From Candidatus Moraniibacteriota bacterium (lineage in GTDB: Bacteria > Patescibacteriota > Minisyncoccia > Moranbacterales > UBA11712), in assembly GCA_043802865.1 (NCBI GenBank), contig JAZDKQ010000031.1, forward strand, positions 1 to 52,864: a stretch of DNA of 52,864 nucleotides, given 5' to 3'. Position 1 is the stretch's first letter. Each line of letters opens with the position of its first letter. Positions 6,285-52,637 of this stretch are shown piece by piece. The notes beneath the pieces are model-generated. The model worked only from the letters and a program-made list of their open reading frames with translations. It was not told where the DNA came from and ran no database searches. A program made the position numbers and the translations under genes.

Positions 6285-7058
6285 ATGTCTTATCAACAAA
6301 GTCAAGTCAAAGGTTTCCTCACTCATGCGATTTTCACGGGAGCAATCGTGATGCTGGTTGTTTTCATAGTCTCTTTATTTCTTCCTAAAGAGTGGTTGGT
6401 GAGCGGAAAGATTGTTGTTTTTCCTTCGGGCCAGCCGGTGAGCGCTTCGCAAAATCTTTTGGCGGAAACAGGAAACACGGCTGAAATCATCAAAAGTGAA
6501 TCTTTTCAAAAAGCAAATTTCGGCGATCAGGCCGTGAATTTCGCTGGTGCGAAAGCCGTGAAAAATTCTTCAATGGTTTGGGTGAAGTTTCGCAGCAATG
6601 AAACTGACATTCAAATGTATGAAGATTTGATCGTGAAAATTCCGGGCCAAGTCAATGATTATGCCCGCGACCTATACAGCGGTTCGCCTTTTAAATACAA
6701 AATGGCGGGCGATCCGGAAATTTCTGCCAGTCCCGTTCGTCCGAATCTTCTCTTGAATGCCATAATTGGTTTTCTGGGCGGCATTTTGCTTTATGCGATC
6801 TATTGGCTTGGATTTGAATCCATATGGCCGAAGAGCGAAGAAATTGATACGAAAATGGAAGAGGCTGCCGCAATAGTTTCTCCGGAGATCAAACCAGCCG
6901 AAAAATCCGAGAAAAAAATAATTTCTCCAAAAAGCAATTCCGCTGCGCCAGAAAATCTTCCTTTCGTGGATGAATTGATTTCTTCTTCAAATGCTGAAGA
7001 ACCTTCAGACGATGAAGTGAAAGAACGATTGAATCGGCTGATGAGAGGGGAACTATAG
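6285..7058 (+). CDS. Wzz-like polysaccharide chain-length determinant candidate (two TM helices flanking an extracytoplasmic domain)
   Basis: TM1 is AIFTGAIVMLVVFIVSLFL and TM2 is LLLNAIIGFLGGILLYAIYWL, with about 140 aa between them. This PCP-like topology sits in a glycan locus. Sequence similarity was not verified. Confidence 0.4.
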   Translation: MSYQQSQVKGFLTHAIFTGAIVMLVVFIVSLFLPKEWLVSGKIVVFPSGQPVSASQNLLAETGNTAEIIKSESFQKANFGDQAVNFAGAKAVKNSSMVWVKFRSNETDIQMYEDLIVKIPGQVNDYARDLYSGSPFKYKMAGDPEISASPVRPNLLLNAIIGFLGGILLYAIYWLGFESIWPKSEEIDTKMEEAAAIVSPEIKPAEKSEKKIISPKSNSAAPENLPFVDELISSSNAEEPSDDEVKERLNRLMRGEL

Positions 7059-10724: not shown

Positions 10725-10746
10725 TTTTTTATTTTCTTAAAAAAAA

Positions 10747-11607
10747 ATGAAGATCAAAAAAGCCATTATTGCCGTTGCCGGTTCCGGAACCAGATTTTTG
10801 CCGGTGACCAAGGCGATGCCCAAAGAAATGCTCCCAATTGTCGACAAACCGATCATACAATTGGTCGTCGAAGAACTTGTTGAGGCTGGAATCGAAGACA
10901 TCATTCTTGTCACGAAATGGGACAAAAAACCCCTTGAGGATCATTTCGATCATTCATGGGCGCTTGAAAACGAGCTGGAGAAAGCGGGCAAAACGGAAAG
11001 ATTGGAGGCGGTGAAAAGAGTTGCGGATATGGCGAATTTCATTTATGTCCGCCAAAAAGGGCCATATGGAAACGGGACGCCTGTGCTGTCGGCGGCCAGC
11101 CTTGTTGATGATGAGCCGTTTGTGTTTGTCTGGGGAGACGATCTGGTGAAATCGAAAGTTTCTTTCACGAAACAAATGATCGAAGACTACGAAAAAAATG
11201 GCCATCCAATGATCGGAGTGCAAAAAGTCGCGAAAGAAGATGTTGTGCGGTATGGAATCGTGAAATTGCGCGAAGGGACGAACGAAATCGAAGATATTAT
11301 TGAAAAACCGTCAATTGAAGAGGCGCCCTCCCAGCTGGCTGACTTCGGGCGGATGATCTTGAATCAGGATATTATCAATGTTCTCAAAGATACCGCTCTT
11401 GGAAAGGGGAATGAGCTTTGGATCACGGACGCGATCAAAAAATATGTCCAAAACGGCGGAATATTTCTGGCAAAAGAAATCGAGGATGGCGAATGGCTCA
11501 CGACGGGTGATCCCTTGAATTATCTCAAAGCACTTCTTGCCTACGCGGCGGAAAGGGAAGATATCGGAAAAGAATTGAAAGAATATACGCAGAAATTGTT
11601 TCGTTAG
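10747..11607 (+). CDS. galU: UTP--glucose-1-phosphate uridylyltransferase
   Basis: KAIIAVAGSGTRFLPVTKAMPKEMLPIVDKPIIQ, VRQKGPYGNG and VEKP-like IEKP motifs typical of GalU. Confidence 0.9.
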   Translation: MKIKKAIIAVAGSGTRFLPVTKAMPKEMLPIVDKPIIQLVVEELVEAGIEDIILVTKWDKKPLEDHFDHSWALENELEKAGKTERLEAVKRVADMANFIYVRQKGPYGNGTPVLSAASLVDDEPFVFVWGDDLVKSKVSFTKQMIEDYEKNGHPMIGVQKVAKEDVVRYGIVKLREGTNEIEDIIEKPSIEEAPSQLADFGRMILNQDIINVLKDTALGKGNELWITDAIKKYVQNGGIFLAKEIEDGEWLTTGDPLNYLKALLAYAAEREDIGKELKEYTQKLFR

Positions 11608-11616
11608 GATAACTTT

Positions 11617-12729
11617 ATGCGCATCGCCATCAATGCTGCTGATTTGGATCATCCCCGGATCGACGGGACGCGGATATATATTCAGAATCTGCTCAAAAAC
11701 TTCGGCCTTCAGAATCGCGAAGACCGGTTTTTGATTTATCATAAAAAAGATTTCAATCCTCAGCTCAAATTTCCTATTTTTGACAATTATAAAATCATCA
11801 AAAAACCTTTCCCGTTTTGGTGGACGCAGACAAGGTTCGCGTGGGAGATGTTTTGCACGAAACCGGATATTCTCTTCATGCCGATGCACTCGCTTCCGTT
11901 TTTGCACTCCAAAAAAACCAAAACCGTCGTCACAATCCACGATCTCGCCTTCAAATTTTTTCCGGATCACTTTCCCAAAAAAGACTTGAAAAGATTGAAC
12001 TTTTTCACGGATTATGCAGTAAAAAATTCTGATAAAATAATCGCTATCTCAAATTCAACCAAGAATGATCTGCTGAAAATATATCCAAAACTAAAAGAAG
12101 ACAAGATAAAAGTAATTTACCATGGTTATGACGAAAATTTATTTAATCTCGATATATCCGAGCAGGAAATTAAAAGAGTAAATACAAAATACAAAATACA
12201 AAATACCAGATACCTAATTTTCGTCAGCACCATCCAGCCCCGCAAAAATATCGAAATGCTGCTTGAGGCTTTCAAAATATTGCGGCGCAAAGAAGCGCAT
12301 AAAGATTTGAACCTCGTGATTGCGGGCTCCGAAGGCTGGCTGGCGGAAAATATCGTCGAAAAAATAAAAAAAACTTCGGGCGCGATCATGACCGGAAAAT
12401 TTGAGACAGCGAATCTCCCGGCGCTCATCGCGGGCGCGGAAGTTTTTGTTTTGCCGTCACTCTATGAAGGTTTTGGTTTGCCCGTGCTTGAAGCGATGGC
12501 TTGCGGCACTCCCGTGGCCGTGGCGGACAATTCGAGTTTAAGCGAAGTCGCGGGTAACGCCGGAATGCTTTTTGACGCTTGCTCAAGCGACAAGATAGCC
12601 GATGCATTGCTCGAAATTATCGAAAACGAAAAATTGCGAAATAGTTTGCGCGAAAAAGGATTGGAGCGAGTGAAAAGTTTCAGCTGGGAAAAGTGCGTGA
12701 AGGAAACGCTGGAATGGATAAAAAGCTAA
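11617..12729 (+). CDS. glycosyltransferase family 4 (GT-B)
   Basis: MRIAINAADL...RIDGTRIYI N-domain; C-terminal SLYEGFGLPVLEAMACGTPVAVADNSSLSEV (EX7E). Confidence 0.82.
   Translation: MRIAINAADLDHPRIDGTRIYIQNLLKNFGLQNREDRFLIYHKKDFNPQLKFPIFDNYKIIKKPFPFWWTQTRFAWEMFCTKPDILFMPMHSLPFLHSKKTKTVVTIHDLAFKFFPDHFPKKDLKRLNFFTDYAVKNSDKIIAISNSTKNDLLKIYPKLKEDKIKVIYHGYDENLFNLDISEQEIKRVNTKYKIQNTRYLIFVSTIQPRKNIEMLLEAFKILRRKEAHKDLNLVIAGSEGWLAENIVEKIKKTSGAIMTGKFETANLPALIAGAEVFVLPSLYEGFGLPVLEAMACGTPVAVADNSSLSEVAGNAGMLFDACSSDKIADALLEIIENEKLRNSLREKGLERVKSFSWEKCVKETLEWIKS
12182..12206. repeat. in-frame heptanucleotide tandem repeat (ATACAAA)x3.5 inside the GT4 gene
   Basis: atacaaaatacaaaatacaaaatac encodes KYKIQNT. 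Its reverse complement, GTATTTTGTAT..., matches the intergenic heptad motif at 20349 and 48912. Confidence 0.8.
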
Positions 12730-12732
12730 TTG

Positions 12733-12817
12733 TGTCATTGCGAGGGAGCATAGCGACCGCGGCAATCTCGGGATTGCTTCGCGGAGTTTATCCGGCTACG
12801 ACGGGCTCGCAATGACA
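12733..12817. repeat. MITE/REP-like palindromic element with 12-bp perfect terminal inverted repeats
   Basis: TGTCATTGCGAG (12733-12744) / CTCGCAATGACA (12806-12817). Inner hairpin GCAATC-tcgg-GATTGC (12762-12777). It fills the gap between convergent genes and likely also acts as a bidirectional terminator. Confidence 0.7.
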
Positions 12818-17992: not shown

Positions 17993-18763
17993 ATGAATTT
18001 ATTTTTCGATACGAAATTAGCCGATGATTATTCAAGCTTATCGCAAAAAATAAGGGTTTTAACGGAGAATTGGGTTGATAAGCAAGTCTATTGTCCAAAT
18101 TGTGGACATTTAGATATTGATAAATACGGAAACAATAAACCAGTTGCTGATTTTTTCTGTTCAAATTGCAAGGAAGAATACGAGTTAAAAAGTAAAAAAG
18201 TTTCTATCGGGACGAAAATAGTTGACGGTGCCTATAAGACAATGCTTGAGAGATTGCAAAGCACGAATAACCCGAATTTTTTTCTACTCAACTATAATTT
18301 ATCTGATTTTTCCGTATTGAATTTTCTTGTTATCCCAAAGCATTTTTTTGTTCCTGATATTATTGAGAAGCGTAAGGCATTATCGCAAACAGCAAGGCGT
18401 GCCGGTTGGATCGGTTGCAATATTTTATTGCAAAGTATTCCGCAAACTGGAAAAATATTTTTTGTAAAAAATCGAAGAATTGAATCAAAAGAAAACGTTG
18501 TTGCAAATTGGCAAAAAACTCTTTTTCTAAGAGATGAAAAAGAAGTAAGTGTAAAGGGTTGGCTTTTGGATACTATGAGTTGTATTGAAAAACTGGAAAG
18601 AAAAGAATTTACACTTGATGAACTTTATGCGTTTGAAAGTTTTTTAAACAAGAAGCATCCTGAAAACAAACATATAAAAGATAAAATTCGTCAGCAATTG
18701 CAAGTTCTGAGGGATAAAGGATATTTAAAGTTTATAAATCGAGGCAAATATCAATTAATATGA
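17993..18763 (+). CDS. DpnI-type methyl-directed (G6mATC-specific family) type IIM restriction endonuclease
   Basis: End-to-end resemblance, recalled from memory, to S. pneumoniae DpnI: YCPNCG...NKPVADFFCSNCKEEYELKSKK (Zn ribbon plus PD-(D/E)XK), DGAYKTM, NNPNFFLLNY, ARRAGWIGCNI, EFTLDELYAFES, NKHIKDKIRQQLQVLRDKGYL..RGKY (winged-helix half). Confidence 0.88.
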   Translation: MNLFFDTKLADDYSSLSQKIRVLTENWVDKQVYCPNCGHLDIDKYGNNKPVADFFCSNCKEEYELKSKKVSIGTKIVDGAYKTMLERLQSTNNPNFFLLNYNLSDFSVLNFLVIPKHFFVPDIIEKRKALSQTARRAGWIGCNILLQSIPQTGKIFFVKNRRIESKENVVANWQKTLFLRDEKEVSVKGWLLDTMSCIEKLERKEFTLDELYAFESFLNKKHPENKHIKDKIRQQLQVLRDKGYLKFINRGKYQLI

Positions 18764-26217: not shown

Positions 26218-26345
26218 ACCCTGTGGATAACTTTCTTGACTTGCATTTAAAAAAAAATGATATATAATAAAATAAATTCTACAAAGTTATCGCAAATAAT
26301 TTTTTAGAAAAAATAAAAAATAAAATTGAAGGGAGGTGAAACACA

Positions 26346-38383: not shown

Positions 38384-39187
38384 ATGAAAGAAATTTCCAA
38401 ACATTACAACCCTTCCGAAGTTGAGCCGAAGTGGCGGGAATTTTGGGAGAAGAATAATATTTATAAATTCAATCCCAAGGCCAAAGGGGAGATTTTTTCC
38501 GTGGACACGCCGCCGCCGACAGTGAGCGGAAAAATGCATATTGGTCACGCTTATTCATACACGCACGAAGATTTCATTGTTCGATATCGCCGAATGAAAG
38601 GCGAAAATGTATTTTTTCCTTTCGGAACGGACAATAATGGCCTTGCAACGGAAAGATTGATCGAAAAAATGAAAAATGTCCGGGCCGGCAAAATGGATCG
38701 CAATGAATTCATCAAATTATGCAATCAAACAGTCAAAGAAATTACGCCTGATTTCATATTGGATTGGCAAAAAATTGGCATGTCTTGCGATTTTTCAAAG
38801 ATCTACTCGACAATTGACGACAACAGCCGCTGCGCGAGCCAAAAATATTTCATTGATTTATATCAAAAAGGCCACGCCTATCGCCAGGAAGCGCCGGTGG
38901 TTTGGTGCCCGCATTGTCAAACGGCCATTGCCCAAGCGGAACTCGAAGACAAAGAAGTCGAAACTCTTTTCAATGATATCGTTTTCAAGCTGAAAGATAA
39001 AAAAAATCTGATCATTGCCACGACCCGCCCGGAACTGCTTTCGAGTTGCGTCGCGGTTTTCGTGCATCCGCGCGATTTGAGATACAAAAAATTAATCGGG
39101 CAAAAAGCGCAAGTGCCGATTTTCGGCAACAAAGTTGAAATATTGGCAGACAAAAAAGTGGATCCCGAGAGGGGACGGGCGCGGTGA
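38384..39187 (+). CDS. valS: valine--tRNA ligase, N-terminal fragment (frame interrupted near 39167-39175)
   Basis: YNPSEVEPKWREFWEKNNIY; DTPPPTVSGKMHIGHAYSY (HIGH); FGTDNNGLATE. Ends ...KKVDPERGRAR*, where homologues read VDPE.GTGAVM. Confidence 0.85.
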   Translation: MKEISKHYNPSEVEPKWREFWEKNNIYKFNPKAKGEIFSVDTPPPTVSGKMHIGHAYSYTHEDFIVRYRRMKGENVFFPFGTDNNGLATERLIEKMKNVRAGKMDRNEFIKLCNQTVKEITPDFILDWQKIGMSCDFSKIYSTIDDNSRCASQKYFIDLYQKGHAYRQEAPVVWCPHCQTAIAQAELEDKEVETLFNDIVFKLKDKKNLIIATTRPELLSSCVAVFVHPRDLRYKKLIGQKAQVPIFGNKVEILADKKVDPERGRAR

Positions 39188-40737
39188 TGTGCTGTACGTT
39201 CGGCGACAAAACCGATGTGGAGTGGTTCAAAGAATACAAACTGCCACTTGTTATTTCGCTCGAAAAGTATGGAAAAATGTCGGAACGGGCGAAAAAATAC
39301 GCGGGACTTTCAGTCAAAGATGCGCGCCAAAATGTCATTGAAGATCTGCAAAAGAAAAAACTGCTAATTGGCCAGAAAAAAATCACGCACTCAGTTAATA
39401 TTCACGAAAGATGCAAAAATGAGGTTGAAATCCTGAATTCCAAACAATGGTACATCAAAATTCTCGACAAAAAGAAAAAATTCATCGAACTTGGAAAAAA
39501 AATCAAGTGGCATCCGCCCTTCATGCGGGCGCGCTATGAAAACTGGATCAACAATCTCGGCTGGGATTGGGCAATCTCGCGCCAAAGATTTTTCGGCATT
39601 CCGTTTCCAGTTTGGTATTGCGAGAAATGTGGAGAAGTGAAACTGGCCGATGTTGAAGATCTGCCGGTTGATCCGCTCACCGACAAACCAAAAGGAAAAT
39701 GCGCGAAGTGCGGAGGAACAAAATTCATACCCGAAAAAGATGTGCTCGACACTTGGGCGACCAGTTCCATTTCTCCGCAGCTTGCTTTGCAATTATTTTT
39801 TTCCGAAAAAGATGCGCAAAAAATTATCCCGATGAATCTTCGTCCGCAAGCTCATGACATAATTTCAACTTGGCTTTTCTATACAGTTGTTCGCTCAAAC
39901 TATCATTTTGACAAAATTCCGTGGAAAAATGTCATGATTTCGGGACATGTCCTTGATTCAAAAGGGGGGAAAATGTCAAAAAGTCTTGGCAACGCGGTTG
40001 CGCCGCAAGAAATATTTGAACGATATGGTTCGGACGCTTTGCGCTATTGGTCAGCCGAAAGCAGTTTGGGACAGGATATAAACTATTCTGAAGATGAAAT
40101 AAAAATAGGCAAAAAAACCACGACCAAACTCTGGAATGCCGCCAGGTTCATGGCGATGAACGTGAAAAAAACGGAATTGCTCAAATCTATAGATATAATT
40201 GAGCCGGCAGATGCGTGGATCGTTGACGAGCTGAACAAAACAATTGTGAAAACGACCAAAGCTTTCGAAAACTACGCCTACGCGAAAGCCAAAGAAGAAA
40301 TCGACAGTTTTTTCTGGTCAAAATTCGCGGACTATTATGTCGAGTTTGTAAAATATAGATTCTTCGGAGATGACGCAAAATCGAAAAAAACGGGCGAAAA
40401 AACGATCGCGACCGTATTTTTCAATATCGTGAAACTCTATGCGCCGATCATGCCATTTGTCACAGAAGAAATTTTCCAAACCTATTTTAAACATCTTGAA
40501 AAAGTGAAGAGTATCCACATTTCTAACTGGCCGGAAGAAATAAAATTGAAAAAATCACCTGAAATTTCGGATTTTGAAAACGCGATCAAGGCGGTTGATG
40601 AGATCAGAAAGCACAAAACAAAGCAAAATATTTCTCTTGGAGCGGAAATTGATTCAATTAAACTAAAAACCAAAGTAAATTTGAAGAAATACGGCGAGTT
40701 TTTGAGAAAAGTAGGAAGAGTGGGAAAAATAAATTAA
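39184..40737 (+). CDS. valS: valine--tRNA ligase, C-terminal fragment (frame -1 relative to the N-fragment)
   Basis: This frame reads (E)GTGAVMCCTFGDKTDVEWF from 39169 onward and continues the N-fragment homology seamlessly. KMSKS motif GGKMSKSLGN. The anticodon-binding domain follows. Confidence 0.85.
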   Translation: MMCCTFGDKTDVEWFKEYKLPLVISLEKYGKMSERAKKYAGLSVKDARQNVIEDLQKKKLLIGQKKITHSVNIHERCKNEVEILNSKQWYIKILDKKKKFIELGKKIKWHPPFMRARYENWINNLGWDWAISRQRFFGIPFPVWYCEKCGEVKLADVEDLPVDPLTDKPKGKCAKCGGTKFIPEKDVLDTWATSSISPQLALQLFFSEKDAQKIIPMNLRPQAHDIISTWLFYTVVRSNYHFDKIPWKNVMISGHVLDSKGGKMSKSLGNAVAPQEIFERYGSDALRYWSAESSLGQDINYSEDEIKIGKKTTTKLWNAARFMAMNVKKTELLKSIDIIEPADAWIVDELNKTIVKTTKAFENYAYAKAKEEIDSFFWSKFADYYVEFVKYRFFGDDAKSKKTGEKTIATVFFNIVKLYAPIMPFVTEEIFQTYFKHLEKVKSIHISNWPEEIKLKKSPEISDFENAIKAVDEIRKHKTKQNISLGAEIDSIKLKTKVNLKKYGEFLRKVGRVGKIN

Positions 40738-51188: not shown

Positions 51189-51201
51189 GTAGCAGCCGTT
51201 T

Positions 51202-51243
51202 CCTAACATTCAATGTTAGGAGCGCCTAACATTGAATGTTAGG
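51202..51243. repeat. two tandem 19-nt palindromes that are reverse complements of each other
   Basis: CCTAACATTCAATGTTAGG (51202-51220), then agcg, then CCTAACATTGAATGTTAGG (51225-51243). They can fold as two hairpins or as one 19-bp hairpin. The 3' arm contains the AGGA of the aspS SD. Confidence 0.9.
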
Positions 51244-51250
51244 AAAATTT

Positions 51251-51676
51251 ATGCAGCGAACTCTGATTGCAGATACAACAAGCAATATTGATCAAACCGT
51301 GAAAATTTCCGGCTGGGTGAAAACCCGCCGCGACCACGGAAAGATCATTTTCATCGACCTCCGCGACCGGTCGGGTGTTTTGCAATGCGTGATCACACCG
51401 GATAAAAAAGAAACTTATGATTCAGCTCAGCATATCAGAAGTGAATTTGTGTTGGAGCTTGAAGGTTTGGTTAAAAAACGCCCTGAAAACGCTGTTAATC
51501 CTGAAATTGAAACTGGCACCGTCGAAATGGAAGTGACAAATATCAATATCCTAAATGAATCCAAAACGCCTCCTTTTGAAATTGAAAAAGATACGAGCGA
51601 AGTGAGTGAGAAAGTAAGACTGAAATATCGCTATCTTGATCTTCGGACTGACCGAATGAAAAAAAAATATTATTGA
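51251..51676 (+). CDS. aspS: aspartate--tRNA ligase, N-terminal (OB-fold anticodon-binding) fragment; frame broken in an A9 run
   Basis: MQRTLIADT...[31 protein letters not shown]...[10 protein letters not shown]. Ends MKKKYY* just after the A9 run at 51659-51667. The ATG at 51251 is preferred over the track start at 51236. Confidence 0.85.
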
Positions 51677-51728
51677 AAGAGCAAGAATAATCAAATTCAT
51701 TCGTGATTTCTATACGGAAAAAAATTTC

Positions 51729-52637
51729 GTGGAAATTGAAACTCCGATTCTGACAAAGGGAACGCCCGAAGGAGCCCGAGAATTTATTGTTCCCTCGCGC
51801 CTGCATCAAGGAAAATTCTATGTTCTTCCCCAGTCGCCCCAGCAGTTCAAACAGCTTTTGATGGTCGCGGGAATTGAAAGATATTTTCAAATTGCCAAAT
51901 GTTTCCGGGATGAAGATCAAAGAGGGGATCGCCAGCCTGAGTTCACCCAGCTTGATGTTGAGATGAGTTTTTCCGACGAAAAAGAAATCCAAGACATTTA
52001 CGAGGAATGCTTAATTGAACTTATTAAAAAATATTATCCGGAAAAGAAGATTACGCAAATTCCTTTTCCAATAATGACCCACGCCGAGGCCATGGGAAAA
52101 TATAACTCGGACAAACCTGATTTACGCAGTGATAAGAATGACCCGAACGAAATGGCCTTTTGCTGGGTAGTGGATTTCCCGCTGTTTACGCGGGACGATA
52201 AGGGAAATCTGAACGCCGAACACCATCCGTTCACCGCGCCCAAGCCTGAGGACATGCATCTGCTTGACTCAAATCCGGACGCAGTTAGAGCGCAGGCCTA
52301 CGATATTGCTTTAAACGGCAATGAAATAGGTGGAGGCAGTATCAGAATCCACAAAAAAGAGCTCCAGCATAAAATTTTTGAAATCTTAGGCTTGGACGAA
52401 AAAACTATTCAAGAAAGATTCGGTCATATACTTGAAGCTTTTGAATTTGGCGCTCCGCCCCACGGCGGAATTGCCCCGGGTATTGACCGTCTCGTCATGC
52501 TTTTGATGGACGAGCCTAATATTCGCGAAGTAATGGCTTTCCCAAAAACCGGAGAGGCAGAGGACTTGATGATGAGCGCGCCGAGTGAAATAGATGAAAA
52601 ACATCTAAAAGAGGTCAAAATAAAAAGAATCTCTTAG
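51729..52637 (+). CDS. aspS: aspartate--tRNA ligase, catalytic fragment (+1 frame; this frame is open from 51660)
   Basis: From 51660 this frame reads [47 protein letters not shown], continuing the N-fragment homology. Motif 2 is [20 protein letters not shown] and motif 3 is [13 protein letters not shown]. There is no GAD insertion domain. Confidence 0.85.

Follow-up and report, generated by a model that had tools for sequence, protein, structure and literature searches.

A run of nine A residues (A9) interrupts aspS, the gene for AspRS, in the DNA of a Candidatus Moraniibacteriota bacterium, and removal of a single A restores the whole enzyme. In all likelihood the assembly miscounted a base here; at most the break is a mutation of very recent origin, and it does not look like the signature of a gene that has evolved to depend on slippage. 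From comparison with related genomes, it is probable that the split is an assembly or sequencing artefact and that the true site is A8.

The stretch of DNA that was analysed, hereafter the window, comprises positions 1-52,864 of contig JAZDKQ010000031.1 (assembly GCA_043802865.1), about 52.9 kb of the genome. Its genome relatives are Candidatus Moranbacteria, Parcubacteria and Patescibacteria MAGs, and similar sequence is present in public runs from groundwater, subsurface, sediment and other environmental metagenomes. GC content is 42-44% over most of the length (2-kb bins span 0.31-0.49 and lie mostly at 0.40-0.47). The window carries genes for ribosomal proteins S13, S11, S4, L17, L13, S9, S2 and L31, together with rpoA, EF-Ts, RF1, PrmC, pheS, pheT, SHMT, a ClpB-like ATPase, rhamnose-pathway and glycosyltransferase genes and a two-component system; further Pfam annotation of its ORFs yielded ordinary, intact housekeeping genes. 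Five adjacent or overlapping ORF pairs in the window were checked with Pfam as possible further split genes (Wzy_C/GT4, RmlD/NTP transferase, S11/S4, EF-Ts/PSP1 and RF1/L31), and all five are pairs of separate genes. A DpnI-like methyl-directed restriction endonuclease gene (17993-18763; PF06044 and DpnI_C, E=1.4e-82) lies in or beside the region's lowest-GC stretch (0.355, 18-20 kb), followed by ~1.2 kb without long ORFs and then by rpsM; the region at 18-20 kb may be an acquired island.

Positions 51656-51676 read ATG AAA AAA AAA TAT TAT TGA, with CGA immediately before them (51653-51676). The 5' frame, which starts at ATG 51251 and encodes 141 aa with an OB fold (Pfam tRNA_anti-codon), terminates at TGA 51674-51676, just as an earlier reading made from the sequence alone (the sequence-only reading) had described in stating that A9 splits aspS and that the OB-fold fragment ends there. 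This 5' part matches residues 1-137 of intact relatives. The remainder of the gene is in the +1 frame, which was correctly said to be open from 51660: TGA 51657-51659 closes it just upstream, the stop lies at 52635-52637, and the product between them matches tRNA-synt_2 (Table 1). The productive shift window is 51660-51673, over or adjoining the A-run, and the 0-frame TGA sits 6 nt past the run, not adjacent to it.

Table 1. Coordinates of the interrupted aspS and valS genes in the window (X1 is a public metagenome run described in the text).
Feature	Position	Strand	Description
valS 5' part	38384..39187	+	ends at TGA 39185-39187; PF00133 profile positions 2-185
valS indel site	39167..39175	+	window GAGAGGGGA; relatives/X1 contig GAGAAGGGGA / GAAAAGGGGA (E K G T)
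valS 3' part	39184..40737	+	PF00133 profile positions 182-413 and Anticodon_1
aspS 5' part	51251..51676	+	OB-fold anticodon-binding domain and hinge; frame 0; PF01336, E=7.7e-18
aspS A9 homopolymer	51659..51667	+	in-frame A8 (ATG AAA AAA AAT, 38 other genomes) plus one A
aspS 3' part	51660..52637	+	class II catalytic core, motifs 1-3, without GAD insertion domain; +1 frame; PF00152, E=1.7e-109

The claim that skipping one A restores AspRS also held: the corrected ORF encodes 461 aa and aligns without a gap across the junction, both with relatives and with the solved bacterial AspRS 4wj3 of P. aeruginosa (E=7.6e-144). The match to 4wj3 falls into two segments (query 14-332 to chain 24-341 and query 299-458 to chain 433-591) that skip the insertion domain, because the GAD insertion domain is absent from the restored protein. 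With its colinearity to ~460-aa relatives through the junction, the restored product can be classed by homology as a bacterial-type (class IIb) AspRS of the GAD-less form. This form is the norm for the clade; the best 120 of 7999 database matches are all 445-493 aa long and consist of the OB fold and core. Bacterial AspRS with the GAD insertion domain has ~590 aa, and the missing domain is the rule among thousands of Patescibacteria AspRS relatives.

The 62-nt spacer between the stop of the response-regulator gene (51188) and the aspS ATG (51251) contains a perfect 22-bp hairpin at 51199-51246, built from two copies of the palindrome CCTAACATT[C/G]AATGTTAGG. The RNA fold has a predicted energy of -36.8 kcal/mol (z=-8.6), and an AGGA 7 nt before the aspS ATG lies inside the 3' arm. 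The hairpin is not conserved: one close relative (L024) lacks the spacer, and two others (L022 and L003) differ in sequence. Its role could be that of a terminator, of an operator or of an element that sequesters the SD.

Comparison of the site across relatives indicates that the ninth A is peculiar to this assembly. aspS is uninterrupted in 21 of 21 genome relatives and in all of the best 120 of 7999 database AspRS proteins, and relatives keep it in the same order (response regulator, aspS, MFS transporter). The nearest relatives (L022, L023 and L024; 93% aa and 87.5% nt) read ATG-AAG-AAA-AAT-ATT-ATT-GAA, and the more distant L007 and L009 read ATG AAA AAA AAT, an in-frame A8. Relatives ~90% identical, representing another species-level lineage in runs X2, X5 and X6, are likewise without the extra base. 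We also searched 185,579 species-representative genomes for the aspS motif D-L-R-x-(D/E)-R-M with an A-run and T directly behind it. A8-T occurred in 38 of these genomes, almost all Patescibacteria and all encoding DLRxxRMKKN, nearly all with long open frames on either side as far as the fetched locus allows; A9-T occurred in none of the 185,579. Thus the comparison of the A-run in related genomes that the sequence-only reading had proposed returned an in-frame A8 in 38 genomes and A9 in none. Two scans of JGI metagenome contigs for exact patterns flanking the A-run gave no match, and exact-protein look-ups in the contig collection with the aspS 3' ORF, the aspS 5' ORF and the response regulator also gave none. 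Across the genomes compared, A8 is a recurrent, tolerated state of the aspS site and A9 a state unique to the window, absent from close and distant relatives alike, and this singleton status (in-frame A8 in 38 genomes, A9 in none) argues for an artefact.

The rest of the gene points the same way. When 1380 nt of DNA are aligned with the closest relatives, no gap breaks the frame except the extra A. Compared with the nearest relatives, the 5' part has a dN/dS of 0.056-0.082 and the 3' part one of 0.026-0.04 (dS ~0.7-1.1). Strong purifying selection has thus acted on aspS beyond the break essentially since divergence, the gene was functional almost to the present, and the lesion is therefore either extremely recent or not real. 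The absence of any further lesion in 1380 nt, with dN/dS of 0.03-0.08 on either side of the break, also contradicts the idea of a copy that is accumulating other lesions, and it favours an artefact, as does the essential nature of aspS.

By the same evidence, it is very unlikely that aspS is a true, decaying pseudogene whose role now falls to a second aspS or to some other route encoded elsewhere in the genome. Relatives carry an intact aspS in the same neighbourhood, and the intact second copy that had been raised as a refutation did not appear, as no second class IIb synthetase was found among the scanned ORFs of the window.

The run itself stands out within the window. Three A9 runs are present, of which the aspS run is the sole 9-run in coding sequence, and there is no longer coding run. 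The other two (10739-10747 and 26249-26257) are intergenic, each directly upstream of an ATG, and the final A of the first doubles as the start-codon A of the NTP-transferase gene at 10747. Unbroken ORFs in the window contain 18 A8/T8 runs and 72 A7/T7 runs, and no intact gene has a 9-run; the only coding 9-run is the tolerated A8 plus one base. The earlier observation that neighbouring genes with long A-runs are intact holds for these coding 7- and 8-runs, and the only coding 9-run is the one that breaks a frame. That A9 is the longest coding homopolymer of the window, and so lies where length miscalls concentrate, is a further argument for an artefact, although replication slippage is by nature frequent at A8 tracts as well.

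A second interrupted gene, valS, bears on whether the assembly can be trusted at single bases. The break corresponds to one A missing behind 39169, in GAG-A-GGGG-ACG where relatives have GAA AAG GGG ACx, and it is the sole gap in 2354 nt against six relatives (78-86% nt identity). The break lies outside any long homopolymer, and valS is not rescuable by slippage because there is no long run at the break. We compared the window with Logan contigs from a subsurface metagenome run (X1), the only run in which searches located this organism, at a depth of ~2-3. A 290-nt X1 contig covering 38950-39238 matches the window at 289 of 289 bases and has one A inserted behind 39169, giving GAG AAG GGG ACG, which encodes E-K-G-T as in relatives and leaves valS intact. 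Relative to a near-identical population, the assembly thus has at least one 1-nt indel of its own in an essential gene. This indel is best read as an assembly error; it could instead be a true polymorphism, since X1 is a population ~99.9% identical to the window. The sequence-only reading had counted a second interrupted aaRS as supporting context for aspS. The valS split is indeed present in the window, but it does not serve as such support: X1 has valS intact, which points away from a biological theme and towards indels or errors that are private to this assembly. For aspS, a second 1-nt indel in an essential single-copy gene that is contradicted by an independent contig argues for an artefact, tempered by the possibility of polymorphism at valS. 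aaRS genes make up ~15% of the coding sequence in the window, and the chance that two random hits both fall in aaRS genes is ~2%, with the category chosen post hoc; that both breaks lie in aaRS genes is notable, but being post hoc it was given little weight.

In the window, the valS TGA (39185-39187) overlaps an in-frame GTG at 39184 and an ATG at 39187 (together GTGATG), with the purine-rich GAGAGGGGA 9-12 nt upstream. Termination-reinitiation could in principle give a two-piece ValRS, but these motifs are no more than conserved coding sequence (E-K-G-T-G-A-V-M), and X1 shows valS intact. The ValRS is of the archaeal type, and its nearest genomic relatives outside Moranbacteria (~50% aa) are in the DPANN archaea Woesearchaeota, Nanoarchaeota and Pacearchaeota (loci L037-L048), which suggests an old inter-domain transfer. 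Moranbacteria-like genes also occur in a MAG labelled 'Bathyarchaeia' (L029, 84% aa) and in several others assigned to Bdellovibrionales or Gammaproteobacteria; these look like mis-binned or mislabelled contigs.

The wider comparison with X1 defines how far the assembly agrees with an independent source. Eighty-seven X1 contig pieces were placed on the window, for an estimated coverage of ~30% (from depth bins), and over that portion there were 13 substitutions and two indels, namely the valS base and 2 nt at 6309. The X1 population is thus very close to the window, though not identical. In the cross-checked third of the window, no long A/T run disagreed with the X1 contigs, and the assembly is therefore not generally poor at homopolymers up to 8. 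These counts weigh against an artefact at aspS, as neither indel lies at a long A/T run. The X1 contigs leave 51408-51704 uncovered, so the X1 comparison excludes the aspS A-run, and for this strain A8 is not among the observed sequences. A search of public runs, DNA or RNA, limited to the surroundings of the A-run likewise gave no match. At 6309-6310, the X1 contig is without 2 nt (AAGTCAAGTC[AA]AGG), 24 nt past the ATG (6285) of a hypothetical ORF (6285-7058) that has no Pfam match. This difference is probably a real strain polymorphism, which would place the true start of the ORF downstream, at GTG 6349 or ATG 6352, and an indel that looks genuinely polymorphic is a second point against the artefact. 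An X1 contig also has a joint at 12733-12767 (back 35, with 14 other letters between), in the spacer that follows the glycosyltransferase gene (11617-12729), so that the two populations differ slightly in structure there. X1 contigs also break at 51199 and 51246, the ends of the hairpin upstream of aspS.

Sequencing error, which the sequence-only reading had listed as an alternative, is now the explanation we favour, with reasonable though far from complete confidence. According to this explanation, the organism's aspS would be an ordinary intact single ORF encoding the 461-aa GAD-less bacterial-type AspRS, and the true site would read ATG AAA AAA AAT (A8). The ninth A would be a homopolymer-length miscall from the sequencing, assembly or polishing step, or else a variant present in a minority of reads that entered the consensus, and aspS would be transcribed and translated normally, with recoding not needed. 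We infer that the extra A is absent from the DNA of the cells by reference to an A8 that is known only in other genomes. If the artefact reading is correct, annotation should treat aspS and valS as intact genes or mark them as sequence of low quality, and neither gene should count as a pseudogene or as evidence for aaRS loss or recoding in CPR bacteria.

A possible but clearly less probable reading is that A9 is real and reflects a very recent A8-to-A9 replication slippage in this strain or population, with leaky, adventitious rescue. The route would be short: the nearest relatives have AAG AAA AAT, from which the window differs by G-to-A and one extra A, and a synonymous AAG-to-AAA change would make A8, a common and tolerated state at this site, before one A was added. 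Rescue could occur in two ways. Slippage of RNA polymerase (RNAP) on A9 would produce a fraction of transcripts with A8 (or A11); alternatively, tRNA-Lys might re-pair within the run, with a +1 shift after the second AAA giving MKKNIIE and a -2 shift after the third giving MKKKNIIE. The position of the productive shift window, over or next to the A-run, is consistent with either route, and the apparently genuine small indel polymorphisms between the genome and the X1 population are consistent with a real difference. Slippage of bacterial RNAP occurs on runs of 9 A or T (PMC5009743), and An runs with n>7 serve programmed transcriptional realignment (PMC3711429), so the aspS run has the tract length at which RNAP slippage occurs (about 9 or more; PMC5009743, PMC3711429). 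E. coli RNAP, on the other hand, is described in one report as having relatively low indel-bypass ability on poly(A), for which it needs >7 A residues (PMC6260861); if that description applies, the yield of corrected transcripts may be small. In a free-living population, an aaRS gene that is essential and apparently single-copy should lose a frameshift quickly to selection, and it is improbable that one genome would carry two of them, in aspS and in valS. Moreover, valS is beyond rescue by slippage and is intact in the 99.9%-identical X1 population. The site also lacks a stimulatory context: by reading of the local sequence, there is no SD-like motif directly upstream of the A9 run and no adjacent stop. 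If A9 is real, aspS would be a case from outside insect endosymbionts of an essential gene sustained by polymerase or ribosome slippage, and it would bear on the tolerance of homopolymer mutations in reduced-genome bacteria. Even so, it would be a known kind of phenomenon in a single strain.

A stronger version of the real-A9 reading, which we regard as unlikely, is that in this groundwater CPR (Moranbacteria-like) bacterium the only AspRS would be made solely by slipping transcripts or ribosomes, and that ValRS might come in two pieces by way of GTGATG 39184-39189. Rescue of the endosymbiont kind, through polymerase infidelity, would then reach a lineage with a reduced genome and moderate GC that is free-living or episymbiotic. 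Least credible of all is programmed recoding, in which regulated transcriptional realignment or +1 ribosomal frameshifting at A9 would set the level of AspRS: its one attraction is a slippery A9 like those of Thermus dnaX and the Shigella mxiE/spa genes (PMC3711429, PMC5009743), whereas the frameshift is unconserved (0 of 38 A-run genomes and 0 of >140 orthologues examined), the shift site has no stop or rare codon and no prfB-like Shine-Dalgarno element 3 nt upstream, and nothing in relatives corresponds to the truncated 0-frame product (OB fold plus KKKYY).

Two further accounts of the split were rejected. If UGA were read as a sense codon, readthrough of the 0-frame TGA would lead into sequence that has no homology, and it is the +1 frame that holds the whole catalytic core. 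A split enzyme made by reinitiation is also unlikely, as the first start in the 3' frame (GTG 51729) has no convincing SD in front of it and would lose 23 conserved residues before motif 1.

The genomes of the endosymbionts from which the slippage model derives are reportedly very AT-rich and shaped by strong drift, with many long tracts (often 10 or more) and many affected genes. The window does not share this setting, being neither AT-rich nor populated by many long tracts and several tract-broken genes. In Buchnera and Blochmannia, frameshifts in poly(A) tracts are rescued by RNAP slippage (Tamas et al. 2008, as related in PMC5009743). aspS resembles these cases in being a housekeeping gene with a +1 length change in poly(A), readable if RNAP transcripts vary in length. 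Unlike in the endosymbionts, GC content is 42-44%, no other coding run exceeds 8, aspS is the only gene affected at a homopolymer (the valS break is not at a tract) and the frameshift is unique to one assembly. The proposal that aspS expression depends on slippage after the endosymbiont model found no support: the A9 is a singleton, present in 0 of 38 A-run genomes, in a window of moderate GC with no other coding run longer than A8.

Programmed transcriptional realignment sites include the A9 of Thermus thermophilus dnaX, those of Shigella mxiE and spa13 (PMC3711429, PMC5009743), and sites in IS630-family transposases. The aspS site shares with them nine A residues on the sense strand. Their sites persist across orthologues and give either two products that are both of use or products in a fixed ratio, whereas at aspS neither the frameshift nor the slippery motif is conserved among orthologues and the 0-frame product is a truncated OB fold. 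Phase-variable contingency loci are similar in that the gain or loss of one base in a coding homopolymer switches a gene on or off. Such loci are typically surface, restriction-modification or secretion genes (PMC3711429), in contrast to aspS, an essential aaRS gene that cannot be switched off.

The closest likeness is to the homopolymer indels of assemblies, which are a typical residual error of long-read assemblies and fragment gene calls (PMC9262707), and for a singleton frameshift that BLAST validates in a prokaryotic genome, sequencing error is the expected cause (PMC3711429). One difference is that the long A/T runs of the window that could be checked agree with independent contigs. In other respects aspS corresponds to this class: it has a single-base excess in a long homopolymer, one base off which restores a full-length orthologue; the change is a singleton in a gene that is otherwise perfectly conserved; and the same assembly has a second 1-nt indel, in valS, that independent data contradict, although it may be a polymorphism.
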